In this document: positions 25,015 to 42,872 of the stretch, one piece after another | Layout: the number at the start of each line of letters is the position of its first letter | Numbering within the stretch: position 1 is the first letter of the stretch | NCBI GenBank assembly: GCA_021791995.1 | Contig: JAJYVN010000001.1 | Location: 1-48,758 of the forward strand | From: Bacillota bacterium | GTDB lineage: Bacteria; Bacillota; Sulfobacillia; RBS10-35; JAJYVN01 | Reading direction: 5' to 3' | DNA length: 48,758 nucleotides | The notes under the pieces: generated by a model | The model's database searches: none | What the model saw: only the letters and a program-made list of their open reading frames with translations | What the model was told of the DNA's origin: nothing | Translations under genes and position numbers: made by a program

Positions 25015-25457
25015 CGGCGGCCGACGCGACGATCCTGACGGTCGCGCTTGCCGCCGCATCCGTGTGGGACATCCGGGTGCGACGCATCCCCAACCCCCTG
25101 GTCATCGCGGCCGCGGTGCTCCTGGTGGCAGCGGATCTGGAGGGTCTCTCGTTCATGACGACCGCGATCCGGGCGGGAAGTGCCGCCGTGCTACTCGGCC
25201 TATGGCTTCTGGTGCCTACGGGCATGGGCGCCGGGGATGCGAAGCTCCTGGCCGTGTGCGCGCTCGGCGGTGGCCCGTTTCTGGCCCTGGTTCTGTTCTT
25301 TGGGTCCGCCGTGACCATGGCCTTGTTCGCGCTCGCGCGGTGGGTAGCGACGTGGGGCCGCGTGAGACTCGGCGGGGCGCTTCCGATGGCACCGTTCGCG
25401 GGAGTCGTTTGGGTGGTCGTGCTGACCGGGCTGGTTGGCGTGCCGCACCGGTTCTGA
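25011..25457 (+). CDS. tadV: A24-family prepilin peptidase (TadV/CpaA type, no methyltransferase domain)
   Basis: 148 aa. The catalytic Asp contexts are SVWDIRVRRIPN and GMGAGDAKLL. Confidence 0.85.
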   Translation: MTAADATILTVALAAASVWDIRVRRIPNPLVIAAAVLLVAADLEGLSFMTTAIRAGSAAVLLGLWLLVPTGMGAGDAKLLAVCALGGGPFLALVLFFGSAVTMALFALARWVATWGRVRLGGALPMAPFAGVVWVVVLTGLVGVPHRF

Positions 25458-26015: not shown

Positions 26016-26550
26016 GGCTCGGGTGGAATGCACGTACCGGAGTAGCCCGTCGGTCCCTATGGCGCAGGATGGCCGTACGGATCGGTGTCGGCCTCCATCC
26101 AGATCTCGATTCCGGAGGCTGTCAGGCTGGACCGACGGGCGATCGGTACTCCAATCGCCATCCATAGACAAGGCGACACGTACTCATGTGGTGGAGAAAT
26201 GGCGTGCCGTAGGCGGTTCGGTACAGGAACGCCAAGGCGCGCGCTTCGATTTCCTCTTGGGTCACGTTCGTACCACCTGGAGTTATGGTCGGGGGCACGG
26301 TATGGCCTGGGACCTGCGATGGTTCGGCTCGCTAGGCACTGACGACCCTGCTTATGCGCCATCAATCGCCGGAGGCAGCTTAGTCGACGAGGTCGTTGCT
26401 GAGGCCCGAGTACCTAGCGGCGGCCTGAGCCTGGACGGCGCGCAGCGCCCGACTTGCGCAACACCCTCGCGGCATCGCGCATCTCCATCACGGCCCTAGC
26501 TCCACGCCTTTGAGGAGTGTAGTGCGGTGATCCCGCATTGGTCGTTGCGG

Positions 26551-27120
26551 CTAACGCCTGGACCGGAACGTTGCTAGTTGCCTAGTCACGCCAGTTACCT
26601 GGCGACGATATCGAATCAAATCCACACTAGCGCCAAAGTGCAAGACCATTGCTGCCTCAGACAACTGGCGTCTAGCAGCCCAGAGCAGTGCTGGCCGCGG
26701 CAACTGTAGACAACCGCCTAGCCAACTGGCTTCTGCTTCCTGTTCCTCGTCGTAGTCCCGGAGAGGGTAAGGGAACTCGCTTATCTGGAGAACCATCGAG
26801 GGCTCGTGCTTGCACAGCAAGTGGGCGAGCTCGTGCATGAGGTCGCTCTGTTGTCTCGTCTTTGCGTGCTCTGTATTCCTAATAATTACGGGCTGATCTC
26901 CAACGGAAATTGTCAAGGCCGACCAACTGGACGGATCGGTGAATAGCAATTGCCAAAGTGTGACCGCGTCCATACCGGGAATGTCATGTGGGCCGACGAG
27001 GAAAACACCTAGATGGGAAGCCAATTGTTCGGCTGCTAGGGGATCCTGGGGGTTTAGGTCAAGAGCACGACGCAAGTCCACCGCCCACGCCTCGGATTGG
27101 GTCTTGAATCCTCTTTGCAT
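26551..27120 (-). CDS. ImmA/IrrE-family zinc metallopeptidase
   Basis: HEXXH in DLMHELAHLLCKH. It lies 2 nt downstream of an XRE repressor gene, the immR-immA arrangement. Confidence 0.85.
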   Translation of the reverse strand: MQRGFKTQSEAWAVDLRRALDLNPQDPLAAEQLASHLGVFLVGPHDIPGMDAVTLWQLLFTDPSSWSALTISVGDQPVIIRNTEHAKTRQQSDLMHELAHLLCKHEPSMVLQISEFPYPLRDYDEEQEAEASWLGGCLQLPRPALLWAARRQLSEAAMVLHFGASVDLIRYRRQVTGVTRQLATFRSRR

Positions 27121-27122
27121 GT

Positions 27123-27515
27123 CTATCGCGGACTTGGCTGGGGCCAGTCTCCCCGCCCGGCAGCCTCAAACGCTAAACGGATCATAGTTACCAAGGCCTC
27201 CACTGTTTTGGGATCCAAAGTACGTTGAGCCCGAAGGTGCGCTGTAATTATATCAACATCCGTTGCCGCTGCTTTTTGCGGTTCTGAGCTAACGCTGAGA
27301 TTGTGTGCGAGGTGGTCTGGGGAGACGCCGAGCCACCGGCACAGGCGCAGGAAGGTGTTCAGATCGGGTACATGACCCCTTTCGATTCGTGACAGGGTCG
27401 AGGCGCTGATGCCTCCGATCTCCTTCGCCGCCGCTTGGAGCCCGCGATTACCACGCTTCGTTCGGATCAGCGCAGCTAGTTCAGCAAGGTTCACATCAGA
27501 CACAACTGTGCCCAC
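27123..27515 (-). CDS. XRE-family HTH repressor (ImmR-like); start uncertain (27503 or 27515)
   Basis: LQAAAKEIGGISASTLSRIERGHVPDLNTFLRLCRWLG is a Cro/C1-type HTH. Confidence 0.85.
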   Translation of the reverse strand: MGTVVSDVNLAELAALIRTKRGNRGLQAAAKEIGGISASTLSRIERGHVPDLNTFLRLCRWLGVSPDHLAHNLSVSSEPQKAAATDVDIITAHLRAQRTLDPKTVEALVTMIRLAFEAAGRGDWPQPSPR

Positions 27516-27549
27516 CCTTCCCGTCGCATGAATAAGACGTATTGCGCTC

Positions 27550-27587
27550 TTGCAAGGGGATGGGGTCCTTGCGTATAATGTACGCAA
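27550..27587 (+). promoter_or_regulatory. near-consensus sigma-70-type promoter plus palindromic operator for the Ubl operon
   Basis: TTGCAA (27550-55), 18 nt, then TATAAT (27574-79). The perfect palindrome ttgcgta-taatg-tacgcaa (27569-87) overlaps the -10 box. Extra TTGCG/TGCAA half-sites occur at 27542, 27601 and 27609. Confidence 0.6.
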
Positions 27588-27656
27588 CACGTGTCACGGA
27601 TGCAACACTTGCGATTCGGAACGTGGGGTGACCAGTGTGAGAGGGGGCTGAAAGAA

Positions 27657-27884
27657 GTGGCCGACGGCGCCAAGTACGAGGTGGACATCGAGGGCCGTTT
27701 CTACCCGTGGGATTCAGACGACATCACGACCAAGGACATCATCCGGTTGGCGGGCTTTGCGGCTGGCACCCAAATCATCGAGGTCGATGGCGACAACAAC
27801 CAGCGGACCTTGGGGCCCGAGGAGGTTGTCGAGTTGAAGCCTGGTCATGGCTTCGCCAAGCGACACCGGTTTCGCCGGGGTTAG
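27657..27884 (+). CDS. ubiquitin-like (multiubiquitin/beta-grasp type) protein ending in a free Gly (BilA-like)
   Basis: 75 aa from the GTG behind GAGGGGG (the ORF track starts at 27591). The pattern YEVDIEGRFYPWDSDDITTKDIIRLAG...VVELKPGHGF fits a beta-grasp fold. The C-terminus is ...RHRFRRG followed by the stop. Confidence 0.7.
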   Translation: MADGAKYEVDIEGRFYPWDSDDITTKDIIRLAGFAAGTQIIEVDGDNNQRTLGPEEVVELKPGHGFAKRHRFRRG

Positions 27885-27888
27885 GGCG

Positions 27889-28266
27889 ATGACGCGCATT
27901 GAGCAGGAGTTGGTTCTCCTGCGCTCCAAGTTCCCGGATGCAGCCTTGCAAGGTCAGTGGGTACTGCTGCCGAGCTATCCTGTACCGAACCCCGGGTGGG
28001 GCGCCGACTCCGTCAAGGTCGCCTTCCCAATCCCCGCCGCCTACCCAGCCCAGAAGCCGTATGCCTTCTACGTCTCACCCCCTCTTAGGGTGGGCGCCTC
28101 GATCCCCGGAAATGCCACTGAGGCGTCTGATCCGGTCTTCGATGGGGAATGGACCAAGTTTTCATGGGACTGTCAGGACTGGTCGCCGGCGGCGGAAGTC
28201 GCGGGAGGCTCCAACTTGCTGCACTGGGCGCTAAGCTTCCACGAGCGCCTAAAGGATTACTCATGA
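27889..28266 (+). CDS. prokaryotic E2-like (UBC-fold) protein (BilB-like)
   Basis: 125 aa, starting 4 nt after the Ubl stop. VKVAFPIPAAYPAQKPYAFYV resembles the E2 core. There is a single Cys (FSWDCQDW). Supported by context between Ubl and JAB/E1. Confidence 0.65.
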   Translation: MTRIEQELVLLRSKFPDAALQGQWVLLPSYPVPNPGWGADSVKVAFPIPAAYPAQKPYAFYVSPPLRVGASIPGNATEASDPVFDGEWTKFSWDCQDWSPAAEVAGGSNLLHWALSFHERLKDYS

Positions 28267-28796
28267 CCATCGAGGTCCGACTGACGTCGGAGGAGTGGAT
28301 TCTACTCCGTCAGCATCTGTTTCAGAATTCCAAGGAGCATGCCGCGTTTGCCTTTTGCAAACTGGCGCGGGGAGACGACGGAGTGGCCCTGGTATCGGAG
28401 GACCTATATCTTGCCGTCCGGTCGGACTTCGAATTGCAGTTGGAATACCATATTACGCTTAGCGATGAGACCCTTGCGCGGCTGATTAAGAAAGCGTGGG
28501 ATCATGACCACTGTATTGTGGAGTTTCACTCCCATCCAAAGTCCCCCGGTGGGGTGAGTTTCTCGCCGAGTGACCTTGATGGGCTAGCAGACGTCGTTCC
28601 GTACATCGGTTGGCGGTTACGGGGACGGCCATACGCAGCGGTCGTTGTCGGACTCAAGGAGATAGACGCCTTGGCCTGGGTCGATGACTTCACGGTTCCG
28701 CAGCGACTGGATGTGGTGCGAGTGGGCAATGACAAGCTGCTACCAAGTCAGATTACTATATCTGAACTGGAGGGCGACTATGGGGAGATTCAGTAG
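28263..28796 (+). CDS. JAB/MPN+ (JAMM) metallo-isopeptidase (BilC-like)
   Basis: Glu in NSKEHAAFAF, and HSHPKSPGGVSFSPSD matches HxH-x9-S-xx-D. ATGA overlap with the E2 gene. Confidence 0.9.
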   Translation: MTIEVRLTSEEWILLRQHLFQNSKEHAAFAFCKLARGDDGVALVSEDLYLAVRSDFELQLEYHITLSDETLARLIKKAWDHDHCIVEFHSHPKSPGGVSFSPSDLDGLADVVPYIGWRLRGRPYAAVVVGLKEIDALAWVDDFTVPQRLDVVRVGNDKLLPSQITISELEGDYGEIQ

Positions 28797-29637
28797 GCAG
28801 ATCCTTCTGTTCGGCGACGAGGGGCAACAGGTCCTTAGCAACATTCGGGTCGCGATCATCGGGCTAGGCGGGCTCGGGAGCCATGTTTCGCAGCAACTCG
28901 CATATCTAGGCATTCGCAAGTTCGGCCTTGTGGACGGCGACATGGTGGAGGAGACCAATCTTAACCGCTTGATCGGCGCTACCGCCGACGACGTCCCAGC
29001 AAGTCGGCCGAAGGTGGACGTCGCCGAACGTATGATCAAAGCGGTCGATCCGGAAGTCCAGGTAGAGCGGGTTGGTAAGTCGTTCATCTCGCTGGAGGGC
29101 CGCGCCCTGCTTAGCGAGGCCGATTTTGTCATCGGCTGTGTCGACAATGACGGCGCGCGCCTTGCGCTCACGGCTGTATGTGCGGCGCTTCACAAGCCCT
29201 ATATGGACGTGGCTACTGACATCGACCCGGATGACACGCCGATCAACTATGGAGGTCGTATCATCTTCGCTAAGGGCGCCTCCGGCTGCTGTCACTGTCT
29301 GGGCGCCCTCGACGATCGTGAAATAGAGCGTTGGATGGGGAGTGAGGACCAGCTCGCGGCAGACGACAGAATCTACGGGAGTGGTGCAGCGGGGCCTAGT
29401 CCCTCGGTTGTTTGTCTCAATGGCGTTCTGGCCTCGGCGGCCTGTCTGGAGTTCATGGTCGAGGTCACAGGCCTACGGGAAGCAAACCGTTGGCTTGAAT
29501 ACGACGGTCCGTCCGGGAAAATGCGAGTTGACTCCACCGTTCCCACAGGCTGGTGCCCGTACTGTGAGTCCTTTAAGTACGGCAGCACTGAGTATGTCGA
29601 CTGGATGCTATCCCGCCTGCCGCAAACTCATCGTTAG
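28780..29637 (+). CDS. ThiF/MoeB/E1-like adenylyltransferase (BilD-like)
   Basis: IIGLGGLGSHV (nucleotide loop), ETNLNRL and GCVDNDGARL. Cys pairs CCHC and CPYC. 17-nt overlap with the JAB gene. Confidence 0.9.
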   Translation: MGRFSRQILLFGDEGQQVLSNIRVAIIGLGGLGSHVSQQLAYLGIRKFGLVDGDMVEETNLNRLIGATADDVPASRPKVDVAERMIKAVDPEVQVERVGKSFISLEGRALLSEADFVIGCVDNDGARLALTAVCAALHKPYMDVATDIDPDDTPINYGGRIIFAKGASGCCHCLGALDDREIERWMGSEDQLAADDRIYGSGAAGPSPSVVCLNGVLASAACLEFMVEVTGLREANRWLEYDGPSGKMRVDSTVPTGWCPYCESFKYGSTEYVDWMLSRLPQTHR

Positions 29638-29853
29638 CGGATGGTCCAAGCCGGGTTCGGCTTACTGTGCACTTGTCTTGGATGCAGTTGCTGCCGTACC
29701 CGCATTAGGCCGGCGTAGTAACTCCGGAGTGCCCCTGGCCTGGCCCGCGATTGCAGGTCGCCGACGTCGATCACCGGATGCGCCAATTTTACCGTGCGAC
29801 TGGTAGGAAGTGGGTCGCCCGTGCCGAACAGTGTCGGCACGGGGAGGTGCTCC

Positions 29854-30480
29854 GTGCACGGAGGCATCGTTCGCCAGATCGACGAGCTCGGCCGCATCGT
29901 GATACCAGCGGAGGTCCGTAGGGTCTTCGGCATCGAGGACGACACGCGGGTCGAGATGTTCCTGGACGGCGAGAAGATCGTCCTCAAGGTCCATCGGCCG
30001 GGGTGCGTGTTCTGCGGTGGCGTGGAGGACACGCGCGAGTACCGGGGTCGGCACATGTGCCGATCCTGCGCTTTTCATGTGTTCACGGAGTTTGAGGGGG
30101 CGCCGTCAGAGGTGGGTTGGCCCGCGACGGCCGGCGGTGACGCTGGGGCACCGGGCGTATGGTCCCCTCTCCCGGAGCAGGCAGCGAGGGAATGGGTCGC
30201 GAAGGAACTCCGCCTGCGGGGCTGGCAAGTTGACGAATCCGGGCGCGCTGGGCGTTCCGTGGACTTGGTGGCCTGGACCGCAACTCGGACTTGGTACCTT
30301 CAGGTCAGGGCCTTCCAGGGCGGCCAGCCCGAGTGGCCCACCGGCCACCAACTCGGATGGCTTAAGGGCGCTGCCAGACGGAAGGATGCGACTGCTGTGG
30401 TGGCGTTTGTGCGTGCGTTGGCGCCGACTTGGGCGGTGGAGTTCTGGTCAGCGCACGCCTTTCGAAAGCTGGAGACTTAG
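29854..30480 (+). CDS. AbrB/SpoVT-type DNA-binding domain fused to a Cys4 ribbon and a YraN/PD-(D/E)xK-like fold
   Basis: GIVRQIDELGRIVIPAEVRRVFGIEDDTRVEMFLDGEKIVLK closely matches the AbrB N-terminal domain. CVFCGG...CRSC follows. The C-terminal AREWVAKELRLRGWQV...SVDLVAW...WYLQVRAF resembles the YraN-type nuclease fold, but with Q/R where E/K are expected. Confidence 0.8.
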   Translation: MHGGIVRQIDELGRIVIPAEVRRVFGIEDDTRVEMFLDGEKIVLKVHRPGCVFCGGVEDTREYRGRHMCRSCAFHVFTEFEGAPSEVGWPATAGGDAGAPGVWSPLPEQAAREWVAKELRLRGWQVDESGRAGRSVDLVAWTATRTWYLQVRAFQGGQPEWPTGHQLGWLKGAARRKDATAVVAFVRALAPTWAVEFWSAHAFRKLET

Positions 30481-30573
30481 CTTCGCCCCGGGAATCTCCC
30501 TTGGGACCGGCCCAGACGGCGGAGCGGCGATCCGTATGTACGGAGTATGCTTGCTACAGAGGGAGATGAGCCC

Positions 30574-32199
30574 ATGCCGCTGTTGAACTTCAAAGGCAAG
30601 ACGTTCGTGCAGAGTCATCACTTGACGGTACCCTACCACACGCTGGTGCCAGTACCGGAGAGGAGTCTGACGGAACAGGTTCGCCTCGATGACAACCTAA
30701 TCATTCATGGTGATAACCTTGCGGCTCTAAAGGCGCTCTTGCCCGTGTACGCAGGCAAGGTGAAGTGCATCTATATTGACCCTCCGTACAATACTGGCAC
30801 TGAAAACTGGATCTATAATGATAACGTAAATTCTCCAATGATCCGAGATTGGCTTGGCAGGGTCGTGGACAGAGAAGATCTGACGCGCCATGATAAGTGG
30901 CTGTGCATGATGACCCCGCGTCTTCGACTATTGCGCGAATTGCTCCGAGACGATGGCGCCATCTTCGTCAGTTGCGATGACAACGAGCAGCATCACTTGA
31001 GGATGCTGATGGACGTAGTCTTCGGAGAAACGAATTTTGTCGCCAACTTGATATGGCAGAAGAAGTATGCATCGGCAAACGACCATAAGTCCATTGCGCC
31101 GATGCACGACTTCATCGTGGTGTATCAGAAGTCGGACCTGTTCCATCGCAACCTGCTTCCTAGAACCGAGGACAAGGATCGGCAGTACCGCTTTGAGGAC
31201 GAGCGCGGGGTATTCCGGCCCGACAACTACACATGCAACAAGACAGCAGACGAACGGCCTAACTTGTATTACCCTATTGTCAATCCGAACACCGGTGACG
31301 AGATTTGGCCAAAGCGGACGGCAGTGTGGCGTTACACGAGAGCTCGGCATGAGCAGAATGTTGCGAGTGGTCTGGTCTACTGGGGGAAGGACGGGCGCGG
31401 CAGTGTCCCAGCCTTTAAGCGGTACAAGGCGGGCTTGCGTGGCGGTGGCGGCATTGTCCCAAACACCTGGTGGACATTTGACGTTGCCGGACACACAGAT
31501 GAAGCCAAGAAGGAGATCCGCGGTATGGGTCTCGAAGCTGATGAACTTGACTTCATTACACCAAAACCGAGCCGCCTCATTCAGCGTATTCTCCAGATCG
31601 CAACCGACAAGGACTCTATAGTTCTTGACGCGTTCGCCGGGTCTGGAACAACGGCGCATGCCGTCTTGGCCGCCAACAGACAAGACGGAGGCAGTCGCCG
31701 ATTCATCCTGATCGAGATGGAGGACTACGCTGATTCCATCACGGCACAGCGCGTGCGCCGTGTTATAAAGGGTCTTCCCGGGGCGAAGGATCGGGCGATG
31801 AGCGAAGGGTTGGGGGGGAGCTTCTCCTACTTTGAGGTGGGTCCGGCGATTGAGCCAGAGGGCCTGCTAACGGGTGAAGCCCTCCCCCCCTTCAGAGAAC
31901 TGGCGCGCTATGTCTTTTACACAGCGACGGGTGAGGAGTTCCGGCCCGAGGTATTAGACGAAGCCCGCCGGTTCATTGGCTCGAGCGGTGAGTACGACGT
32001 GTACCTTCTATACGAGCCAGACATTGAGAAACTCAAGTCGCTGGCACTCAACCTCGAGTTCGCGGAGCGCCTCGGCAAGCCGGCCGATGGGAAGAGGCGG
32101 CTTGTGTTTGCGCCCGCCCGTTTCCTCACTGACCGGTACATGGAGCAGTATCGGATCGAGTACGCTCAACTGCCCCACGAGATGTACAAGACCCGTTGA
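30574..32199 (+). CDS. mod: Type III restriction-modification methyltransferase (Mod; beta-class N6A/N4C)
   Basis: DPPYNT (motif IV) precedes DAFAGSGTTAHAV (motif I). It is followed 23 nt later by a Res helicase-nuclease gene. Confidence 0.9.
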   Translation: MPLLNFKGKTFVQSHHLTVPYHTLVPVPERSLTEQVRLDDNLIIHGDNLAALKALLPVYAGKVKCIYIDPPYNTGTENWIYNDNVNSPMIRDWLGRVVDREDLTRHDKWLCMMTPRLRLLRELLRDDGAIFVSCDDNEQHHLRMLMDVVFGETNFVANLIWQKKYASANDHKSIAPMHDFIVVYQKSDLFHRNLLPRTEDKDRQYRFEDERGVFRPDNYTCNKTADERPNLYYPIVNPNTGDEIWPKRTAVWRYTRARHEQNVASGLVYWGKDGRGSVPAFKRYKAGLRGGGGIVPNTWWTFDVAGHTDEAKKEIRGMGLEADELDFITPKPSRLIQRILQIATDKDSIVLDAFAGSGTTAHAVLAANRQDGGSRRFILIEMEDYADSITAQRVRRVIKGLPGAKDRAMSEGLGGSFSYFEVGPAIEPEGLLTGEALPPFRELARYVFYTATGEEFRPEVLDEARRFIGSSGEYDVYLLYEPDIEKLKSLALNLEFAERLGKPADGKRRLVFAPARFLTDRYMEQYRIEYAQLPHEMYKTR

Positions 32200-32222
32200 T
32201 GTGAGGGGGCGCATCCGGGTTG

Positions 32223-34721
32223 ATGGAACTGAAGGAGTACCAACAGAGAGCTCTGGATAGCGTCGAATCGTACCTGCGCCAGCTGAGAACCTGGCGGGAA
32301 GAGTACGAAGGGGCGAATGAACGACTACGCTCGGCAATGGACTTTCCAAAGGCAGCATGGGAGGGCGTCTCGAGAGGGCCTTACGAGTCGAAGGTGACAG
32401 GGTCTGGGGAACCCTTGCCTAATTTCTGCCTTAAGGTACCAACGGGGGGCGGGAAGACCTATCTCGCAGTGCGTGCGCTCGACCGTGTCCAGACCATATA
32501 CAGGCAGCGGCATTCGGGGTTGGTGTTGTGGATTGTGCCGACGGACCAAATCTATCGTCAGACGTTAATCTCGCTCCAAGATCGGACGCACCCATATCGT
32601 CAATTTCTCGACATCGCCACCGGCGGGCGTGTGCAGGTCGTCGAAAAAACGGACCACTTTACGCCACAGGATGTCCGTGAGCGGCTGGTTATCCTGCTGC
32701 TAATGCTGCCGTCCGCGAATCGCCGAGACAAGGAGACCCTCAAGGTATTTCAAGACGCCGCCGGTTTTGAGGGGTTCTTTCCGGACGATGGGCACCGTGA
32801 AGAACACGAGGCCCTCATTCAACGCTGGCCGAACCTCGACTATTTCGGGGCAGAGGCGGACTGGACGGGCAGACAGGTCAAGAGTTCGCTTGGCAACGTG
32901 CTTCGGATTCTCTCGCCAGTCATTGTCCTAGACGAGGGGCAAAGGGCCTACAGCGAAGGTGCGCAGACAACGATTCGCGGGTTTAACCCGTGCCTGGTGC
33001 TGGAGTTGTCCGCGACCCCACCGAAGGGAAGCAACATTCTGGTCAACGTCCGCGGGCGGGAACTGGATCAGGAGCAAATGATCAAGTTGGAACTGCATGT
33101 CGCGAACCGGGCAAGCACTGACTGGCGGGACACTCTTGCCGATAGCTTGTCTTGGCGAAACCTGTTGGAAGAAGAGGCTAGAAAGTACGGATCCGCCACA
33201 GGTACGTACATCCGTCCGATCTGTCTGATTCAGGTCGAGCGGACGGGAAGGGATCAAATCGAGGCCGATCACATTCATGCGGAACATGTCAAGGACGAAC
33301 TTATCAGGTCGCACGGAGTCCCTGAGAGTCATGTGGCTATCAAATCCAGTGAGAAGGACGACATCGAAGGCACTGACCTACTTTCACCTGACTGCGAAGT
33401 TCGATACATCATCACGAAGCAAGCTCTGCAGGAGGGCTGGGATTGCCCTTTCGCCTATGTGCTTACAGTCCTGGCCAACCCTTCGTCCAGGACGGCCCTT
33501 ACCCAGTTGGTCGGCCGCATCCTCCGGCAACCCTACGCCAGGAAGACCGGCGTTGAAAGCCTGGATGAGAGTTATGTGTTCTGCTTCCGGCGCGAAGCGA
33601 CAGAGTTGTCTAGGGATATCAAGCAGGGGCTTGAGGGTGAAGGTCTGGGGGACTTGGCGCAAAGCGTCGTGGTCTCCGATAAGGGCCCCCAGGATGACAC
33701 GCGCGAGCGCCGGACGGTAGGGATGCGCGACAGGTTCAAGCGGTTTGAGGGAAAGCTGTATCTTCCGAAATTCCTAATTCAAGAGGGAGCACGTGAAGAC
33801 GAGGTTAGTTACGAGATGGACCTGCTCCCGCGAGTGCGGTGGGAAGGCCTCTCTCTCGAACGTATCGCGACGCTCACTCTTTCAGAGAAGCATGTAACTG
33901 AATGGGAGCAGTCGTTCGGTTACGGCGACGACGGCGATACAGTTACCAGCCAGGACTCGGTTGTTGAGACTAATGCGGAGTTGAACGTGCTATTCCTGAG
34001 TCGGCGGATTGAGTCTCTGGTGTCCAATCCGTGGATTGCGAGAGCCATCGTCGATGAGGCACTCCGGACCCTACGGCGTCGCTACGCTGACGACCTCATT
34101 GCCGCCAATCAAGTTCTGATCGCCGATGAATTGGAAAAGACCGTTGCCTCAGAGCGGGACAGGCTTTGTGAGGGAGTGTTTCGCGAGCTCGTCGAGATGG
34201 GTGTCCTTCGCCTTGTTCTCATGAGCACCAAGGCGTACCGCGTGCCGGACAGTATCGAGATTCCCAAAGCGGTCCAGCCTTTGTACCACACTGATGGCAA
34301 ACAGATTCAGCTCAGCCTATACGAGGATCCGGTGCCTAAAGAGTGGTTTAACGAGACGTTGGAAGCGCCCGTCGCCCTTTGCCTGGATCGGCAGGAGAAG
34401 CTGCTCTTCTGGTTCCGCAACCTGTCCAGCCGGGATTACTTCTATGTGCAGGGATGGCGTAAGAACCGCATCTGGGCGGACTACGTTGCGGCCAAGCGTG
34501 CTGAAACCGACGAGCAGAACTATGACACCATTTACGTGCTCGAGACAAAGGGCGACCAGCTGGCCGGCAACGACGATACGCAGTACAAGACGAGTGTCTT
34601 CGACCTGTGTAACAAGCTCTCGTGGAACGCGGTCTGCGAGGAGTTCCCTGGCAAGAAGGTTCGGTTCCAGGTGATTAAGCAGAGCGAGTGGGAGCGGATG
34701 CTCAACGAACTACTGCGATGA
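32223..34721 (+). CDS. res: Type III restriction enzyme Res subunit (SF2 helicase plus C-terminal endonuclease)
   Basis: KVPTGGGKT (motif I), VVLDEGQRAY (motif II), QLVGRILRQ (motif VI), and a C-terminal D...YVLETKG PD-ExK block. Confidence 0.9.
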   Translation: MELKEYQQRALDSVESYLRQLRTWREEYEGANERLRSAMDFPKAAWEGVSRGPYESKVTGSGEPLPNFCLKVPTGGGKTYLAVRALDRVQTIYRQRHSGLVLWIVPTDQIYRQTLISLQDRTHPYRQFLDIATGGRVQVVEKTDHFTPQDVRERLVILLLMLPSANRRDKETLKVFQDAAGFEGFFPDDGHREEHEALIQRWPNLDYFGAEADWTGRQVKSSLGNVLRILSPVIVLDEGQRAYSEGAQTTIRGFNPCLVLELSATPPKGSNILVNVRGRELDQEQMIKLELHVANRASTDWRDTLADSLSWRNLLEEEARKYGSATGTYIRPICLIQVERTGRDQIEADHIHAEHVKDELIRSHGVPESHVAIKSSEKDDIEGTDLLSPDCEVRYIITKQALQEGWDCPFAYVLTVLANPSSRTALTQLVGRILRQPYARKTGVESLDESYVFCFRREATELSRDIKQGLEGEGLGDLAQSVVVSDKGPQDDTRERRTVGMRDRFKRFEGKLYLPKFLIQEGAREDEVSYEMDLLPRVRWEGLSLERIATLTLSEKHVTEWEQSFGYGDDGDTVTSQDSVVETNAELNVLFLSRRIESLVSNPWIARAIVDEALRTLRRRYADDLIAANQVLIADELEKTVASERDRLCEGVFRELVEMGVLRLVLMSTKAYRVPDSIEIPKAVQPLYHTDGKQIQLSLYEDPVPKEWFNETLEAPVALCLDRQEKLLFWFRNLSSRDYFYVQGWRKNRIWADYVAAKRAETDEQNYDTIYVLETKGDQLAGNDDTQYKTSVFDLCNKLSWNAVCEEFPGKKVRFQVIKQSEWERMLNELLR

Positions 34722-34967
34722 TCTGGGCACCGCTGGAGCGGTGGCCGTCCGGCATGTGGTCGGGCTTGTGCCAGTTTCTGGGGCGATTTTGTCTTGGGGG
34801 GTCTAGCGACTCAATGTGGGGTCGTCGGTGGCTTAGAGGCCCGTCATCGGTCGCCGTGGGGCCGTCGTAGGGACGATCCAAGTGTCAACGGTCGCCTCTG
34901 TGGGGTTGAGGGCGGGTAGCCAGGTAAGCTGAGCTCATTTCAGCGACCCAAGAGGAGGCATAGTGCA

Positions 34968-37535
34968 GTGCCGTTCGTAGGTAGGGAAATTCGCCCGGCG
35001 CCACCAGAATCGCCGGAGGTACTCTTCCGCGAACTGCCGCGGACGGGCCGGGGTGTGTCCGAACTGTGGATACACCAGGGTGACGTCCTGCGGGCCTATA
35101 GGGAGCGCCATGTGGACACACCGGACGTAGCAATCGAGCTTCCGACGGGCACGGGCAAGACGCTCCCGGGGCTTCTGATCGCCGATTGGTGTCGACGATT
35201 CCATGGTGAGCGGGCCGCGTACGCGGCTCCGACTCGTCAGTTGGCCCGCCAAGTCGTCCAGGCCGCAGAGCGCGAGGGAATCCCGGCGGTCTTGCTAGTG
35301 GGGGGCCATGGGTCGTGGGCAACCGCCGACGTGACGCGTTACGACGGGGCTCTGGCAGTGGCGGTGACTACGTACAGCACGGTCTTCAACAGCAATCCGC
35401 ACCTGGTTGAGCCTCGCCTCCTGCTCTTCGACGACGCCCACGCGGGGGAACAGTACGTCAGTGAGGCGTACGCCGTGCCCATCAGCATGGAGAGGGACCC
35501 CGACATCTATAACGCCCTCCTCACCGTTTTGAGCCCTGAGCTTCCCCGGATGTTTTTGAAGCGGCTCGGCGATCCAACGGGGGACCCGGGAGTTCGACAG
35601 GAGACGAAGCTCGTGGTGCCGCTTCGTGATCCTAGCTTGATCACAGCGATCGACGACGTCCTCTTCGTGCCGACTGCTTCAGAGGAGTTGAGGTTCCGTT
35701 ACGCTATGGTGCGCGGTCACTTGCCGGCGTGTCTCGTGTATGTAGCCTGGCATCAGGTGCTCATCCGGCCCTTTGTCCCGCCGACGTTCGAGAACAGGAT
35801 CTTCGCGCAAGCGAGGCAGCGGATTTACCTGTCGGCCACCCTCGGGGAGGGCGGGGAGCTTGAGCGCGCCTTCGGCCGTACGCCGATTGTCCGGTTACCC
35901 CTTCTCGGGACATCGGGCGCGCCGCGCTCTGGACGGCGGTTCTTCATCTTCCCGGACCTAGCCGAAGGTGCGGACCCCGATGACTTGACGCGCGAGGTCG
36001 TGAGCCAGGCAGGTAAGGCGCTCGTCCTCACGCCCGATAACGTAAGCGCACGGACTTACGCCGAGAACCTGGTACCTGCCGGGTGGCCGATCCTAGGTCG
36101 CGATGATGTGAGCGAGTCGCTTGAGCCATTGGCCCGGGCTGAACACGCGGTTTGTGGTCTGGCGAACCGATATGACGGCCTCGACTTGCCAGACCAGGCG
36201 TGCCGGCTAGTGATCCTTGCCGATCTCCCCTCCGCCCAGAACCTTCAGGAGCGTTTCTTGGCGACACGGGTCGGGGCCCAGGCCGCTCTCGCTGAGCGCG
36301 TACGCACTCGTGTGATTCAAGGCGGCGGGCGCTGTGCCCGCGGCCCACAGGATTGGTCGCTTGTGGCGGTGCTTGGGGCTGAAATCGCGAGCTACCTTTC
36401 TAGGCCGGAGGTTCGGCAGGCTATGGATCCGGAGCTTCAAGCGGAGATCGAGTTCGGTCTGGGGAACGCCCGTGGGAAGAGCGCCGAGGTGCTGGAGAAT
36501 GTTGGCATATTCCTCGAGCACGGCGATGCCTGGCGTGATGGGGCAGAGCCACGCCTTGCTGAATTCCGGGCAGGCGTGATACGGCAGCGGCCGGACGGGA
36601 CAGATGAGCTTGCATCGTCCGTGCAATCTGAGATCGAGGCGTGCATGCTTGCTTGGCATGGGCGGTTCGAGGCGGCCAGTACATCGGCCCAGGGGGTCGC
36701 AAGGGTTCTCGGGCGCTCCGAGGCTACGAGGCCGTACCGTGCTTTTTGGCTATATCTGTCCGCGCTTTGGCTGTATGAAGCGGGCCGGACCAAACCTGTA
36801 CTTCAGGCAGCGGCCCGTGACCTGCTACGCCAGGCATCAGAGGCGGCCCGCCCCGCCACATGGATCCGAGACATGGCACCTTTGCCCGATGACGTGCCGC
36901 AAGAGATAGAGCCGGAGGATCGTGCCGCAGTCGAGCAGATTTGCGCGCGCCTGGAGAAAGGCGTCAACCGGGGCACCCATGACGGCATAGTGGGTGGCAT
37001 GCTGGCGGGGCTTGCCGCCGCCGACCCTTCTAGGTACGAGCCGGCTCTCACCGAACTCGGTCGTCTTCTCGGGGCTGACGCATTCAAGCCACCCGGAGAG
37101 GGCGGCTGTGACTCCGCATGGTGTTGGGGGAACCATCTGTGGATTGCCCTGGAGGCCAAGAGTGACCAAAACCCTGACGGCCCCGTCTCCCTGGACAACG
37201 TACGGCAGGCGAACACAGCGCTGCCTCTCCTTGCCGGACACCGCAGTCTGGAGGTGCCGCCGTTTGGTAGCATTACGGTCGTTATCTCGCCCCGTGGCAC
37301 TGTGGCGCCCACTGCCGTTATTGCTGCAGAGCCGCAGCTGCACCTCGCCACGCCCGAACTGATTGCGCAACTCGGAGCCGATGCTACAGAAGCATGGCAG
37401 AAGCTCCTAACTCAGACTCCGGGTCTCACGGCCAGAGACCTCAGGGAGGTCACGATGGGGGTGCTGAGTGCGCACTCGGCGCTTCCGTCGCAGGTGCGCG
37501 ACCGGCTGACGCCGCACCCGATTCGTGGCCTATAG
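34968..37535 (+). CDS. DinG/Rad3-like SF2 helicase with a C-terminal PD-(D/E)xK-like domain
   Basis: ELPTGTGKT, LLLFDDAHAGEQY, LSATLGEGG, NRYDGLDLPDQACRLVILADLP and IQGGGRCAR. The C-terminal CDSAWCWGNHLWIALEAKSD fits D-x13-E-x-K. RBS is AGAGGAGG. Confidence 0.8.
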   Translation: MPFVGREIRPAPPESPEVLFRELPRTGRGVSELWIHQGDVLRAYRERHVDTPDVAIELPTGTGKTLPGLLIADWCRRFHGERAAYAAPTRQLARQVVQAAEREGIPAVLLVGGHGSWATADVTRYDGALAVAVTTYSTVFNSNPHLVEPRLLLFDDAHAGEQYVSEAYAVPISMERDPDIYNALLTVLSPELPRMFLKRLGDPTGDPGVRQETKLVVPLRDPSLITAIDDVLFVPTASEELRFRYAMVRGHLPACLVYVAWHQVLIRPFVPPTFENRIFAQARQRIYLSATLGEGGELERAFGRTPIVRLPLLGTSGAPRSGRRFFIFPDLAEGADPDDLTREVVSQAGKALVLTPDNVSARTYAENLVPAGWPILGRDDVSESLEPLARAEHAVCGLANRYDGLDLPDQACRLVILADLPSAQNLQERFLATRVGAQAALAERVRTRVIQGGGRCARGPQDWSLVAVLGAEIASYLSRPEVRQAMDPELQAEIEFGLGNARGKSAEVLENVGIFLEHGDAWRDGAEPRLAEFRAGVIRQRPDGTDELASSVQSEIEACMLAWHGRFEAASTSAQGVARVLGRSEATRPYRAFWLYLSALWLYEAGRTKPVLQAAARDLLRQASEAARPATWIRDMAPLPDDVPQEIEPEDRAAVEQICARLEKGVNRGTHDGIVGGMLAGLAAADPSRYEPALTELGRLLGADAFKPPGEGGCDSAWCWGNHLWIALEAKSDQNPDGPVSLDNVRQANTALPLLAGHRSLEVPPFGSITVVISPRGTVAPTAVIAAEPQLHLATPELIAQLGADATEAWQKLLTQTPGLTARDLREVTMGVLSAHSALPSQVRDRLTPHPIRGL

Positions 37536-37720
37536 AGGCATTCGGACGAATTCCCCGCCGAAAGAACGCCACGGAGGTCTGTGGTAAGGACGGATCTTCG
37601 TAGAGTGCGCAACGGTGCCAACCTGACATTTTTGGCTCACGGAGGTAACTCACCTGGTCGGTCCTGGCGAATACATTAGGTGACGCACTGGAGGGGGTAC
37701 CGATTACGCAAACACATCCA

Positions 37721-38755
37721 GTGCCAGCATATCCGCCTGCCGATCTGGTGAGCATTGTCCTGACAGGGGCCTCGATCGCAGCCACGCTGTTCGGCCTCGG
37801 GTTTGCAGTAGTGACATATTTCAATTGGTCCAATATTCGGGGCCGAGTACGAAGAGAGATTGGGCGAGTAAATGATATCGAGTCGGCAAAGATCAGCCGG
37901 CGGATGGATGACCTTGTTCGAGGTTATGGCCGTTACCTCATGGCTGTCCAAAACCTGAGCGATGCGGATGACTTCGAACGGGAAGCTCAAGTTGTTCAAG
38001 ATGAAATTAAGGAACTGTGGAACTTCTACGTATACTCCTGCGAGAAGCGCGTTTGGCCTATTGTAAAACGGCTCGGGAATGCGTGGTCCTGGTGGCAACC
38101 GAACCTGCTAACCGATGAGGACAGTGCGAACATTCTCAAGGCGCTACGGTCACTAAGCATGGCGGAAGCCAATCTTGGGTGGCACGATCCGTCAGCCATT
38201 TCGATGTGGCGTGGTATCTGCTACGCAATCTTGCGCGAACCAACGGCCGCTGTTGAGCGGTTTGAGTCCATCGCCGACCCGAGAATCCTACATCGTTTCA
38301 GGGGCTATCTTGACGTCATGTGGGGTTCGTGTCCGCAACCAGGAGAAGTGTATTTCGAAAGGCTGGCTCGTGCATTTGGATTGCAACCGCCCCTGAGAAG
38401 TTCGGAGAGAGATACCCTGGCGAGGCTGCAGCATATGCAGTACCAAGTTGGGGTTGCGCAGTTCTCGCAAGGAAGCTGGTGGTTGGGGGCCGACCGTGAG
38501 ACGGGGCGCCCGAGTTGGGTCGGCCTCGTCCCTCGAAGTGCGCAAGGTGAACCGGGCTGGCGGGTGGATTACCAGCAGCACTATCCGGAAGGCGGGGGCG
38601 GGGGACAGAGCCACACGGTTCCCTCCATCGAGGCCGGGGTAGAATTCATGCTTGACCGTTTTGTCGGGCTGGTGAGTGCCCCCTCGGAACTTCGGCAACG
38701 ATGGAATCGTGATATGGAGCCCGAAACTTACGAGTTTCCCGATTCAGTTGAGTAG
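37721..38755 (+). CDS. hypothetical membrane-anchored protein (one N-terminal TM); start uncertain
   Basis: LVSIVLTGASIAATLFGLGFAVVTYF is followed by a ~300-aa soluble domain with no recognised motif. It is more A/T-rich and same-strand after the helicase. A strong terminator follows. Confidence 0.55.
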   Translation: MPAYPPADLVSIVLTGASIAATLFGLGFAVVTYFNWSNIRGRVRREIGRVNDIESAKISRRMDDLVRGYGRYLMAVQNLSDADDFEREAQVVQDEIKELWNFYVYSCEKRVWPIVKRLGNAWSWWQPNLLTDEDSANILKALRSLSMAEANLGWHDPSAISMWRGICYAILREPTAAVERFESIADPRILHRFRGYLDVMWGSCPQPGEVYFERLARAFGLQPPLRSSERDTLARLQHMQYQVGVAQFSQGSWWLGADRETGRPSWVGLVPRSAQGEPGWRVDYQQHYPEGGGGGQSHTVPSIEAGVEFMLDRFVGLVSAPSELRQRWNRDMEPETYEFPDSVE

Positions 38756-38758
38756 AAC

Positions 38759-38790
38759 GCCCGGCCAGGCGGCCGGGCTTGTGCCATTTT
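38759..38790 (+). terminator. rho-independent terminator
   Basis: gcccggcc-aggc-ggccgggc is a perfect 8-bp stem, followed by ttgtgccatttta. Confidence 0.75.
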
Positions 38791-38822
38791 ATGGGGACGA
38801 TCTAGTCTTGGACCGTGGGGGG

Positions 38823-39812
38823 ATGCGTGTGCGTTTCCGAGGAGTCTTCGGAGCCGTGACGGCCGGCGCTCTGGTGGCGACTGTCCTGAGCGCGACCACT
38901 GCTCAGGCGGCCGCGGCGTCTTCCTGCCGACCACGGCCAGGGAGCGAGGCATGCCTGTCGTACCTGTTCGCGGACGGTGGGGCGCACTTTTCTGCCGCCC
39001 AGTGGCGAGCGGACATCGCCCGGGCAAGTCGCCCCAACCAGGCTCTCTATGCCAAGTACAAGAGGTTGTTCGACGAGGCCAAGACTGCGGCTGAAAAGCA
39101 GAAGATCCTCGCGAAGTACGACGCGCTGGCGCACGGGTCCGCGGTCGGACCAAATACACCCATGCCTTCGATGCGGACAACCTACGCGGTGTGCCGCCAC
39201 CTACTGGTGAGCCAAGGGTACCGGTACGCCCCTGCCATGTGTGCCCCGTGGTACGCGAACTTCCAAGTCATCACGGGCTGGCAACTGCAGGAGGGGAACG
39301 GCCAGGTGGACATCGAGGTCTTTGGCTATTCCCGTTCGGGCGGGCCCAAGGAGACGGGCCAAATTGCCTTTCTGCAGTTCCCAACCAACCCGCATCTACC
39401 GGACGGTGGGGCCTGGACTGCCATGGATTCGCCACTGCCGTTGATCGCGTGGTTCCGGCTTGTACGTTCGCAGAAGTACGACCCCGCAATGCTCAAGGTC
39501 AAGGACACCTCGGGCGGAACGCTGGCGACCAACGAGTCGCTTAGCGCCGCGCAGTTCCTTGGGTTTTGGGGCTATGGGTACGCGCCGACCGAGTTCTCAG
39601 TTGAGGCGCGTCGCCTGATGGCGACTGCAGGGTTCAACCCCGTTGAGGCAGGGGGGCCTGATGTCTTGCCCGGCCACGCCTGGCCAGCGTTCACAAGTCG
39701 TGCGCTGACTCCATCCGTGTTGCGGACTGCTGGTTGGGAGTATGTAAATTGGCCGGAAAGGGCACTTGGCGGTGGGGGGCTTCCGGGCCTGTACGCCCAC
39801 GGTAGCGCCTAA
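38823..39812 (+). CDS. secreted protein of unknown function
   Basis: Signal peptide MRVRFRGVFGAVTAGALVATVLSATTAQAAAA. 329 aa, bracketed by terminators. Confidence 0.65.
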   Translation: MRVRFRGVFGAVTAGALVATVLSATTAQAAAASSCRPRPGSEACLSYLFADGGAHFSAAQWRADIARASRPNQALYAKYKRLFDEAKTAAEKQKILAKYDALAHGSAVGPNTPMPSMRTTYAVCRHLLVSQGYRYAPAMCAPWYANFQVITGWQLQEGNGQVDIEVFGYSRSGGPKETGQIAFLQFPTNPHLPDGGAWTAMDSPLPLIAWFRLVRSQKYDPAMLKVKDTSGGTLATNESLSAAQFLGFWGYGYAPTEFSVEARRLMATAGFNPVEAGGPDVLPGHAWPAFTSRALTPSVLRTAGWEYVNWPERALGGGGLPGLYAHGSA

Positions 39813-39827
39813 GGCTTGGCGACGACG

Positions 39828-39863
39828 AACCCGCCCTCGAGTGTGGGCGGGTTCTTGTTTTGT
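39828..39863 (+). terminator. rho-independent terminator
   Basis: aacccgccc-tcgagtgt-gggcgggtt is a 9-bp stem, followed by cttgtttt. Confidence 0.8.
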
Positions 39864-39881
39864 CAGGGAGGAGGTATCTGT

Positions 39882-42872
39882 GTGCATCGATCGCTCCGAA
39901 CTTGGGCTGCGGTGTTGCTGTCGGTCGTCCTAGTTGGGGGCATGGCTTATGCGTCATCCGACGTGATCGCGCCCGGCGGCGGTGGTGTATCTGTGGACAA
40001 TGCCTTGACCTTTGGAGTTGATGCTGGCCGTGCGCGGACGGTGAATAGTGACACGTATTCGGCGGGTACGGCGTACCCGAGCACCACCGGTACGTCCGGC
40101 TCGCAGCAATCCACAGGAGCACCGGACTTCGTTCCCGCGCCAGGCTTTGCGACGGCGTTGACCGGATCCCTCTGCTCGTTCTCGACACCGGTTGTATCCG
40201 GTAGCATGGCGTATCAGTACGCATTTGCGGCAGCTGGGGCGTGTGGGCCCAGGACGGCGGCGAGTTCGACAGGTGTGCTCTACGCAATGGACCTGTCGGC
40301 GACCCGGCCGGCAAACGCGTGGGGCGGATACGTTTGGACGGTTCCTTCGTCGTCCCAAATGACGTCGTGCAACGGCTCTGCACCCAATATGGCGGGGGTC
40401 TCGGCGCCAACGATCGACCCGACAGGACAATACCTCGCCATCGGAGCAGGGTGCGTGATGTATTGGGCTTCGCTATCGTCTCTGCAGCCGGGCTCCGCTA
40501 CCGAATCCGTCGCGTCACCGGGCAGTGGCTGGCAACAGAAGACGATTCGCGGTGAGACACCGAACGCGGGCAACGAGGTCGCCATGAGCCCGATCATTAC
40601 GCAGCCGTATACGGTGGCCTATAGCAGCGGGCTCGGATCGGTGTCGGTGTCGACGCCTTACGCTTGCGTAGGTGGCTGGGACGGTGGCATGGCTTGTGCC
40701 GCTATGGCTAGCAAACCAGGCGAGAGTCCGCCGCCGACCGTTCAGTGGGTCATCCCGACGACGGGCTCAAACAAAGATGGCCCCTCTGGCTATCCCATCA
40801 ACTGGATCGGAACGCCACAGAGTCTCGACAACGGCGGCCATGCGATTCTGACCTCGAGTCCGAGTTGGGACCCCCAGGCGAGCGTCAATGGATCCACTGG
40901 CGCCGTGGTATTCGGGATCAACGACGGGTCCGCCGGACCGGGTGCGGTCGTCTTCCTGGACCCGTTGTCGGGCGCCTCCACTATCGTCGTGCTGTCATCC
41001 GGGTTCGACGGGTTGCCGTCCAACGCCGCTGGCATCTCGTCGTCGGTGGTCGTCTATGAGTACGGCACCGGGAGCCCGGCCGACGGAACGGTGATCGTTC
41101 CCGACAACTATGGCGACCTCTACGAGATCAGCCCGGCGGGTCGCCTGCTGGCCTCCATGACTTCGGTTTCTGTCACCGCCCGAGTATCCTGTACGGCGCT
41201 GCCCTGGGACATCAGCGATCTGGCCGTTGGTAAGTACAGCATCTACGCGGTCGAGCACTGCCTGCAGACGGTCGATCGCTTCGGGGTGGCACCCTCGGGG
41301 GGTACCATTGCGCAGGTCGCCACCTACACCTCGAGCACGGGCTACTTCGACGGCGCCTACTCGCCCACGGTGGTTCGGTGCGCTGCCACCGCGTGTCCGT
41401 CCACCAGCACCGTCCCCGGTAGCGACGACGCGTACCTGTTCCTGAACGACAGGTCCAACATGTACGTCCTGCCGATCGGGGCGAACGCCAACGCCTCGGG
41501 CACGATGTCCGTCGCCCCGATCGGGCCCACGACTGGTAGCCCGCCGTTCGTGGCTGCCCTCCCGGACGCGGGCGTGAACCATACGCTACTCCTTTGGAGC
41601 AACGCGGGAGGCGGTGGCTTCGACTACTGGGCGCCCACCGTGTACGGGCCGGATTCGACCGGCGGTTCGGAGATCGTGAGCCTCACGGTGAACGGCCCAT
41701 CGGCCACAAGCGTGACGACGAGTGTGAACACCGCCGTCACGTTCGACATGACGGCAAGCCTGCCGAGCATCGGGCAGTGCGACCCGGTCTACAGCACCAT
41801 AGCGCCCAACGAGACCTGCCTGAACCTGTGGGAGACGACCGGCGGCGCTCCGGGTATCGTGGCCAGCTCGAACCAGTCGGCCGTTCAGGCGCCGTACCCG
41901 ATCACGGAGACGGGACCGAGCAGCTGGACCACATCGCTCGCCTTCGCGCAGCCCGGCACGTACCACCTGTACAGCGTTCTGATGAACAACTCGACCACCT
42001 GGGTGGGCGGGATCGAGCCGGGCCAGAGCCAGGTCACGTCCAACAACGTGACCGTCACGGTGGAGCCCTCCGGATCGAACCCGAGTCCCGCCCCGACATG
42101 CAGCACGCCAAGTTCCACTGGCTGGAACACGCCGGCGAACTGCGTGGGGTCGCTGCCGACGCCGGCTGCCGCCCAGGTGTCGGGGACCCTCACGATGGCC
42201 GTGGGGGATCAAGGCAGTAGCTACTCCCCGGTGTTTGATCCCAACTGGAGTCCCACGTCGGGTATGCCCGATCCGTGCATCACGCCGTCCGTCACGTGCA
42301 ACAGCCCCTACGTGGCCTACCTGCCCCAGCAGTATGGCCTCTTCGGGCAGCACTTGCTGGTCCGGGTGAACCCACCGGCGTACGCGTCCCGGCCGCCAAC
42401 ACTCAGCTCGCCGCCTACCGGGTACACCCCCCGCGTCTGCGACGTGTACTTCCCCTCTTCCGGCCAGGACTACGTGGCACTGCCGCAGGGCATCTCGGAG
42501 GAGACCGGCCAGCCGTGGACCCAGGAGTGGGACCCCCTCAAGAGTGCGGGGTCGTACCTGTACGGTACGGTGCTGGTCGACTGGGCGTGGTGGCCACCGC
42601 TTCCCACCGGCAGCGTCGTGGGTCCCGGGGACCTGACGTCGCACTGGGTTGCTGACGTGTACCGATGGATCTACCAGCGTGTGCAGACCGGAACCGACAG
42701 CAACGGTAATCCGGTGTACGAGTGGGTGCCAACCTGCACGAACCAGGGGCTCGAGAACGGCGCGACCAACCCACAGGTGAACCCGGCCCAGGGGGGTCAG
42801 GTGTACGTGTGGGGGGCCAGGATCGTGCTACTGCCGATCACGACGCACGAGCTCCTCTGGGGGCTGCCGTAG
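39882..42872 (+). CDS. large secreted Ser/Thr/Gly/Pro-rich surface protein (996 aa), function unknown
   Basis: GTG behind GGGAGGAGG. Signal peptide VHRSLRTWAAVLLSVVLVGGMAYASS. No LPXTG motif and no enzymatic motif was recognised. Confidence 0.75.
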   Translation: MHRSLRTWAAVLLSVVLVGGMAYASSDVIAPGGGGVSVDNALTFGVDAGRARTVNSDTYSAGTAYPSTTGTSGSQQSTGAPDFVPAPGFATALTGSLCSFSTPVVSGSMAYQYAFAAAGACGPRTAASSTGVLYAMDLSATRPANAWGGYVWTVPSSSQMTSCNGSAPNMAGVSAPTIDPTGQYLAIGAGCVMYWASLSSLQPGSATESVASPGSGWQQKTIRGETPNAGNEVAMSPIITQPYTVAYSSGLGSVSVSTPYACVGGWDGGMACAAMASKPGESPPPTVQWVIPTTGSNKDGPSGYPINWIGTPQSLDNGGHAILTSSPSWDPQASVNGSTGAVVFGINDGSAGPGAVVFLDPLSGASTIVVLSSGFDGLPSNAAGISSSVVVYEYGTGSPADGTVIVPDNYGDLYEISPAGRLLASMTSVSVTARVSCTALPWDISDLAVGKYSIYAVEHCLQTVDRFGVAPSGGTIAQVATYTSSTGYFDGAYSPTVVRCAATACPSTSTVPGSDDAYLFLNDRSNMYVLPIGANANASGTMSVAPIGPTTGSPPFVAALPDAGVNHTLLLWSNAGGGGFDYWAPTVYGPDSTGGSEIVSLTVNGPSATSVTTSVNTAVTFDMTASLPSIGQCDPVYSTIAPNETCLNLWETTGGAPGIVASSNQSAVQAPYPITETGPSSWTTSLAFAQPGTYHLYSVLMNNSTTWVGGIEPGQSQVTSNNVTVTVEPSGSNPSPAPTCSTPSSTGWNTPANCVGSLPTPAAAQVSGTLTMAVGDQGSSYSPVFDPNWSPTSGMPDPCITPSVTCNSPYVAYLPQQYGLFGQHLLVRVNPPAYASRPPTLSSPPTGYTPRVCDVYFPSSGQDYVALPQGISEETGQPWTQEWDPLKSAGSYLYGTVLVDWAWWPPLPTGSVVGPGDLTSHWVADVYRWIYQRVQTGTDSNGNPVYEWVPTCTNQGLENGATNPQVNPAQGGQVYVWGARIVLLPITTHELLWGLP

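Follow-up and report, generated by a model that had tools for sequence, protein, structure and literature searches.

The window analysed here is a stretch of 48,758 nucleotides (nt) from contig JAJYVN010000001.1. Directly downstream of a Type III restriction-modification (R-M) system it carries two plus-strand genes, which the initial annotation had grouped into a candidate two-gene defence cassette with a membrane partner. The first open reading frame (ORF; 34968-37535) encodes a helicase-nuclease of the Hna family that is 855 amino acids (aa) long; its GTG start codon has an AGGAGG motif 9 nt to the 5' side. After a gap of 185 nt comes gene 2 (37721-38755), also with a GTG start; its product is anchored in the membrane, is 344 aa long and belongs to a very rare family. 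A perfect 8-bp GC hairpin begins 4 nt past the gene 2 stop codon (38759-38778, plus strand), and the two genes are bracketed by two plus-strand copies of a ~47-nt direct repeat (34753-34800 and 38766-38812). We put the probability at roughly 85% that the 855-aa ORF encodes an actinobacterial Hna, acting as a stand-alone abortive-infection protein, and that gene 2 is not part of this system.

The N-terminal part of the 855-aa protein, HEL1 plus HEL2 (residues ~1-480; 34968-36410, plus strand), forms an ATPase core of the superfamily 2 (SF2) DinG/XPD-like type. Its helicase motifs are GTGKT at residues 61-65, DDAH at 155-158, SATLG at 289-293 and QGGGRCAR at 451-458, and the ATPase-core residues comprise Q37 of the Q motif, K64/T65 of Walker A, D155/D156 of Walker B and QGGGR (451-455) of motif VI. 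In an alignment of 31 homologues with 46-61% identity, Q37, GTGKT, DDAH and QGGGR are all invariant. The iron-sulfur (Fe-S) cysteine cluster is absent: Walker A and Walker B have only one cysteine (C75) between them, and no four-cysteine cluster is present. Pfam recognised only generic DEAD, ResIII and Helicase_C_2 pieces in the protein. Its homologues number more than 1500 and are uniformly ~855 aa long.

The C-terminal domain, NUC (residues ~685-855; 37020-37535, plus strand), contains the nuclease signature D715...E729-A-K731, an exact D-x13-E-A-K. D715 and K731 never vary across the 31 homologues and E729 almost never does, and E691, S732, R746 and Q747 are conserved likewise; E691, D715, E729, K731, R746 and Q747 are the key residues of the domain. 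The conservation of D715, E729 and K731 indicates that the signature is under selection rather than a chance match. An AlphaFold model of the protein, computed from the family alignment with a mean predicted local distance difference test (pLDDT) score of 85, folds the tail as a PD-(D/E)xK domain. Both ORFs, the helicase motifs and the D-x13-E-A-K signature are present as the initial annotation had described them, and its expectation of a nuclease fold was borne out. The ~250-aa extent it gave for the nuclease tail has to be revised, since in the predicted model the nuclease domain proper spans ~170 aa and is preceded by a helical region of ~200 aa.

The assignment to the Hna family rests on agreement between profiles, sequences and structures. 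PADLOC matched the protein to its candidate single-gene system PDC-S28 over residues 13-829 (E 1.2e-87). A phmmer search against solved structures returned the 845-aa chain of 10uj/9yhn/9ykj (E 6e-33), and the family profile matched the same chain over residues 9-751 (E 6e-52). This chain is the Hna of Sinorhizobium meliloti (Hooper et al., 10.1101/2025.11.12.688083; Nat Commun 2026, PMC13381803). A fragment of S. meliloti Hna, rebuilt from the printed alignment, scores 3e-263 on PDC-S28, so PDC-S28 and Hna are one family; the unnamed PADLOC entry is therefore the named and structurally solved Hna, which should help readers of PADLOC output. Foldseek gave the same answer, with the Hna monomer 9yhn as the top match of our model (E 3e-34, TM-score 0.59/0.61) and the 9ykj chains next.

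The profile alignment also carries the functional residues across. Hna Q39 aligns with Q37, K72/T73 with K64/T65, D162/D163 with D155/D156 and the catalytic K729 with K731, the roles of K729 and of the ATP-site residues being those described for S. meliloti Hna (Hooper et al., 10.1101/2025.11.12.688083). The protein is accordingly a member of the Hna family that retains both its fold and its catalytic residues, and the initial annotation's passing suggestion of an Hna-like helicase-nuclease, like its reading of this protein as a defence gene, is supported.

We then compared the surroundings of Hna genes elsewhere, using 80 Hna loci from reference genomes, mostly of Actinomycetota, with Chloroflexota, a cyanobacterium and an archaeon also represented. 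Searching these loci with gene 2 by tblastn gave nothing significant in any of them (0/80). Hna genes have no conserved partner among their neighbours, the largest neighbour cluster being found at only 5 of the 80 loci. The two closest Hna relatives (59-60% identity) have no gene 2 relative either: one is accompanied by a toxin-antitoxin pair (RES-Xre) and by a TrwC relaxase, the other by HEPN/DUF499 genes. Genes of the Type I R-M, OLD/Gabija-like, AbiJ, MADS, integrase and transposase kinds abound in the flanks of Hna genes. In a plasmid collection, 161 records hold Hna homologues, and of these plasmids 120 are of the conjugative or mobilisable type.

A divergent partner hidden from sequence searches was also considered, as in about 12 of the loci hna is followed immediately, on its own strand, by an ORF of 330-370 aa, which is near the size of gene 2. 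By Pfam and alignment these ORFs are mutually unrelated, and they include a Mu transposase, a methyltransferase, Mrr, a pPIWI-associated nuclease, an AbiJ-like protein and GPDH; the candidate was rejected. Two further observations concern Hna genes in other settings. A second, divergent Hna homologue (P0004, 59% identical; loci L098 and L099) occurs in the same metagenome samples, ERZ27237183 and ERZ27237285, as the organism of the window, and the RES-Xre pair and TrwC relaxase alongside it suggest that it is carried on a conjugative element in the same community. In S. meliloti, hna (SMa2245) is listed beside the unrelated SMa2243, encoding TcmP (three-Cys-motif partner), and both are up ~2-fold in a nolR+ strain (PMC12445080). 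The expression of unrelated cargo together with hna may thus have a precedent in S. meliloti.

Gene 2 encodes a protein with one transmembrane helix and no recognisable domain, just as the initial annotation had described it. Kyte-Doolittle windows exceed 1.6 only at starts 7-16, which corresponds to a single helix at residues ~9-33, and searches of Pfam, PADLOC, NCBIfam and PHROG gave no match. Positive charges follow the helix, which probably places most of the protein in the cytoplasm. In the predicted model (pLDDT 77) the transmembrane helix runs into a long helix (8-78), followed by a helical bundle resembling tetratricopeptide repeats (TPR; 82-248) and a small beta domain (252-319). Foldseek against the PDB and BFVD found nothing for this model at E <0.05; the weak partial matches, TPR-like and WGR/Pur-like, are not trusted.

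Relatives of gene 2 are exceedingly few. A word-indexed search of 5.8 billion proteins recovered only gene 2 itself, while an exhaustive HMMER search of 1.84 billion representative proteins yielded four true remote relatives with 27-30% identity. A fifth match (P0126) was discarded as a repeat-protein false positive. Neither a profile search nor scans of metagenomes and viruses with the family alignment added further relatives, and tblastn against phage and plasmid collections gave no match. The residues conserved in the family are mostly aromatic or hydrophobic and show no catalytic pattern. Judged from these sequences, gene 2 belongs to a real conserved family and does not look like a spurious ORF; it is a dark-matter protein with five known members.

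The surroundings of these relatives differ from one to the next. One of them (P0125; contig L085, 4296-5477) is a lone plus-strand gene between two genes for SSB, the protein that binds single-stranded DNA, within a minus-strand, prophage-like block, which also holds a sigma factor, a helix-turn-helix (HTH) gene and a gene resembling gp82 of phage L5. According to published work Hna is triggered by phage SSB; the placement of P0125 between SSB genes may be a coincidence, but deserves to be noted. Another relative sits between a major facilitator superfamily (MFS) transporter and an IF-2B family gene, and another beside a phage-integrase fragment, while the fourth lies on a 1.3-kb contig without visible neighbours. 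A helicase adjoins none of the three relatives whose flanks can be read.

The hairpin downstream of gene 2 has the form GCCCGGCC-aggc-GGCCGGGC, in which both sequence and RNA folding show a perfect 8-bp stem. The initial annotation had read it as a hairpin and T-tract closing the gene pair; the stem stands, but the T-tract (TTGTGCCATTTTAT) is weak and a terminator scan made no call at this hairpin. It is likely a terminator stem with a weak U-tract. The ~47-nt repeat resembles a terminator-like module as well. Both copies are documented by repeat search, pairwise alignment and RNA folding; the first lies just past the stop codon of the Type III res gene, and the second overlaps the 3' arm of the post-gene-2 hairpin. 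The copies are ~85% identical and spaced 4013 bp apart, with a hairpin ahead of each, that of copy 1 being a degenerate version at 34747-34765. A 23-nt core of the repeat occurs twice in the window where none is expected by chance, and neither the JGI metagenome contigs nor any of the other loci retrieved contain the motif. The repeat resembles a duplicated terminator module marking the boundary of a cassette.

Copy 2 reaches almost to the start of the next gene (38781-39812). Gene callers begin this gene at GTG 38781, inside the repeat; the ATG at 38823 is the more likely start, as it gives a typical signal peptide, MRVRFRGVFGAVTAGALVATVLSATTAQA. The encoded protein has no Pfam match.

The bracketing of the 4-kb hna and gene 2 segment by homologous terminator-like modules fits its acquisition as one block downstream of the R-M genes. 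The two genes thus probably arrived in the same DNA segment, and we take the repeat as pointing to shared acquisition, not to shared function. All contigs with the same Res protein or gene 2 are 99.9-100% identical over the region, and no empty site or variant strain was found among the available contigs.

Several points weigh against our reading of the 855-aa protein as a stand-alone Hna. Its identity to the characterised Hna is only ~21-25%, and within PADLOC it is closest to the second PDC-S28 model, so that biochemical details may differ. The ATP-binding residue R36 of Hna is replaced by W34. Nor are T30, D31 and P34 of the HEL1 dimer loop retained in the alignment, which pairs this loop with residues 27-31 of our protein (with R28-G-V-S31), a segment predicted to be disordered (pLDDT <50). 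Because of these differences, ATP-dependent auto-inhibition as a dimer is not assured, and we found no experiment on any actinobacterial Hna member. As for gene 2, it lies on the same strand as hna, 185 nt away with no convincing terminator between them, and the same ~47-nt repeat brackets both. Co-transcription and some local functional link between hna and gene 2 are therefore conceivable. A scan of 34000-40000 for sigma-70-type promoters made no call, such a scan being uninformative for a high-G+C actinobacterium.

If gene 2 does not belong to the Hna system, it may still have a role of its own. We read it as independent cargo of a mosaic defence island, for which a defence or exclusion role is possible. 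A more specific version of this, that gene 2 came from a mobile element, works on its own as a one-gene module for defence or superinfection exclusion and lies next to hna by chance, is in our view somewhat unlikely, yet it deserves to be taken seriously. Gene 2 shares the island with Hna as well as with a Bil-like ubiquitin-like system and Type III R-M genes, and two of the relatives occur in mobile-element settings, one as a lone opposite-strand, moron-like gene in the prophage-like contig and one beside the phage-integrase fragment. Moreover, a membrane anchor joined to a cytoplasmic repeat domain would be a common layout for a sensor or effector. However, the database and phage or plasmid searches described above returned no match for gene 2, no significant fold match was found, a five-member family is too rare for association statistics, and the relative next to the MFS transporter and IF-2B family genes lies among ordinary genes.

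That the two genes form a lineage-specific system, in which the gene 2 product serves Hna as an accessory (a membrane effector, sensor or anchor) and both are transcribed and mobilised as one cassette, appears improbable to us. The genes share a strand, and the predicted structure of the 185-nt gap is no stronger than that of shuffled sequence (z -0.33). They are jointly bracketed by a repeat found nowhere else in the window, gene 2 represents a genuine family, and one of its relatives lies between genes for SSB, the known Hna trigger. Against this, the pairing is seen at none of the 80 Hna loci, in neither closest Hna relative and in none of the three readable gene 2 relatives (the fourth being on the 1.3-kb contig). 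In other genomes the position downstream of Hna is taken up by unrelated cargo, and Hna works alone in S. meliloti (PMC12445080). The composition of the genes also differs, with a G+C content of 64.4% and a third-codon-position G+C (GC3) of 70.8% for hna versus 56.4% and 59.7% for gene 2, which indicates separate origins; the window outside the island has 66% G+C. In addition, gene 2 lacks a good Shine-Dalgarno sequence at the usual spacing.

The initial annotation was thus right that gene 2 is richer in A/T and that the pair directly follows a Type III R-M system. Its two-gene cassette is nevertheless unsupported, because the genes do not co-occur in other genomes (an outcome that the initial annotation had itself named as refuting), the neighbours of Hna are not conserved and hna alone is sufficient (PMC12445080). 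We give equally little credence to a related scenario in which gene 2 founded a very rare membrane-tethered family with a cytoplasmic TPR-like region and was recruited here as an add-on to Hna, either as a tether or modulator or as a second effector, with the pair moving as one cassette bounded by duplicated terminator-like modules.

Finally, the idea that the helicase is not a defence nuclease but a housekeeping DinG/XPD-type repair enzyme or the CasDinG of a type IV CRISPR system can be set aside as highly improbable: weak local matches to the Helicase_C_2, typeIV_DinG, Csf4 and dinG_rel models and the rank of DinG, XPD and CasDinG as next-best structural matches after Hna are outweighed by scores far below the cut-offs (TIGR01407, dinG_rel, 14.3 bits versus 547.7; TIGR03117, CasDinG/Csf4, 16.9 bits versus 400), a PADLOC typeIV_DinG match that is only partial (E 5e-12 over 269-486), Foldseek values of only ~1e-10 and TM-scores of ~0.35 versus ~0.6 for Hna, the missing Fe-S cysteine cluster, the C-terminal PD-(D/E)xK domain, and a sporadic distribution with frequent plasmid carriage and a defence-island context.

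Hna and gene 2 lie towards one end of an island (~26000-39000) with a G+C content of ~59.7%, compared with 66% on either side. It is flanked on one side by a prepilin peptidase gene (Peptidase_A24, 24336-25457) and on the other by genes for secreted proteins followed by an RcpC-like gene, and seems to interrupt a locus of the Tad/Flp-pilus type. In its left part the island has, on the minus strand, IrrE/ImmA-like peptidase and HTH genes (26551-27590). After them come genes for a multi-ubiquitin protein (27657-27884), Prok-E2_E (27847-28266), JAB (28149-28796) and ThiF/E1 (28684-29637), which together constitute a Bil-like ubiquitin-like conjugation operon of a kind reported as anti-phage.

The next gene (29794-30480), which immediately precedes the Type III mod gene, encodes an AbrB/MazE-domain protein of 208-228 aa with an uncharacterised C-terminal half; this protein may be a regulator of the R-M system. 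The Type III R-M genes themselves (30547-34721, plus strand) comprise Mod (30547-32199) and Res (32220-34721), recognised by PADLOC as MTase_III (E 8e-196) and REase_III (E 2e-167) and by Pfam as N6_N4_Mtase and ResIII. They stand directly upstream of the helicase-nuclease ORF and are a separate system within the same island. The annotation gained is that of a divergent Hna from an actinobacterial clade, lying in a composite defence island together with Type III R-M genes and a Bil-like ubiquitin-like system.

How the 855-aa Hna-family protein might act is suggested by its S. meliloti counterpart. Hna is a single-gene abortive-infection system and a 3'-5' exonuclease acting upon single-stranded DNA (ssDNA) that does not unwind DNA; it is kept inactive as an ATP-bound dimer and is freed by phage SSB (10.1101/2025.11.12.688083, PMC13381803). 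In S. meliloti, hna alone restores phage resistance, and the gene has undergone extensive horizontal transfer (PMC12445080). By analogy, in an uninfected cell ATP bound at the DinG/XPD-like core (Q37, K64/T65, D155/D156) would hold the 855-aa protein as an auto-inhibited dimer. Upon infection, phage SSB together with rising ssDNA would free the monomer, and the C-terminal PD-(D/E)xK domain (D715, E729, K731) could then degrade ssDNA in the 3'-5' direction. Such unrestrained degradation would keep the phage from replicating and sacrifice the infected cell, as expected for abortive infection. We infer the nuclease activity, the SSB trigger and the abortive-infection outcome from this analogy, in which auto-inhibition is the least secure step, as R36 and the dimer loop differ.

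Among known systems, Nhi (nuclease-helicase immunity) and the HamB protein of Hachiman resemble the 855-aa protein in that they defend against phages with a nuclease coupled to a helicase-type ATPase. In Nhi the domains come in the opposite order and the helicase is of superfamily 1, and Hachiman is a two-protein system of HamA and HamB. The PADLOC scan of the 855-aa protein gave no Nhi match, and HamB appeared only as a marginal local match in the PDB sequence search (E 0.44). Both Nhi and HamB are cited as SSB-responsive (10.1101/2025.11.12.688083).

With ExoDinG, DinG, XPD and CasDinG (Csf4) the protein has in common the two-lobed SF2 ATPase core and the helicase motifs. ExoDinG has an N-terminal DnaQ-like exonuclease. 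Unlike the DinG/XPD family, the 855-aa protein lacks the Fe-S domain and has a C-terminal nuclease of the PD-(D/E)xK type, and its scores on the corresponding hidden Markov models fall far short. Hna itself has been likened to ExoDinG, as a 3'-5' ssDNA exonuclease without DNA unwinding (10.1101/2025.11.12.688083).

The protein is most alike to S. meliloti Hna (helicase-nuclease abortive infection; SMa2245; PDB 9YHN, 9YKJ, 10UJ). The two are of similar length (855 and 845 aa) and have the order HEL1-HEL2-NUC in common, as well as the Q motif, Walker A, Walker B, motif VI and the D...ExK signature, and neither has an Fe-S cluster. Both are encoded by a single gene without a conserved partner, are horizontally mobile and are found in defence islands. 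The 855-aa protein differs in coming from an actinobacterial clade at only ~21-25% identity, in the change of R36 to W34 and in its HEL1 dimer loop, and divergent orthologues of this kind could show how general ATP-dimer auto-inhibition and SSB sensing are within the Hna family.

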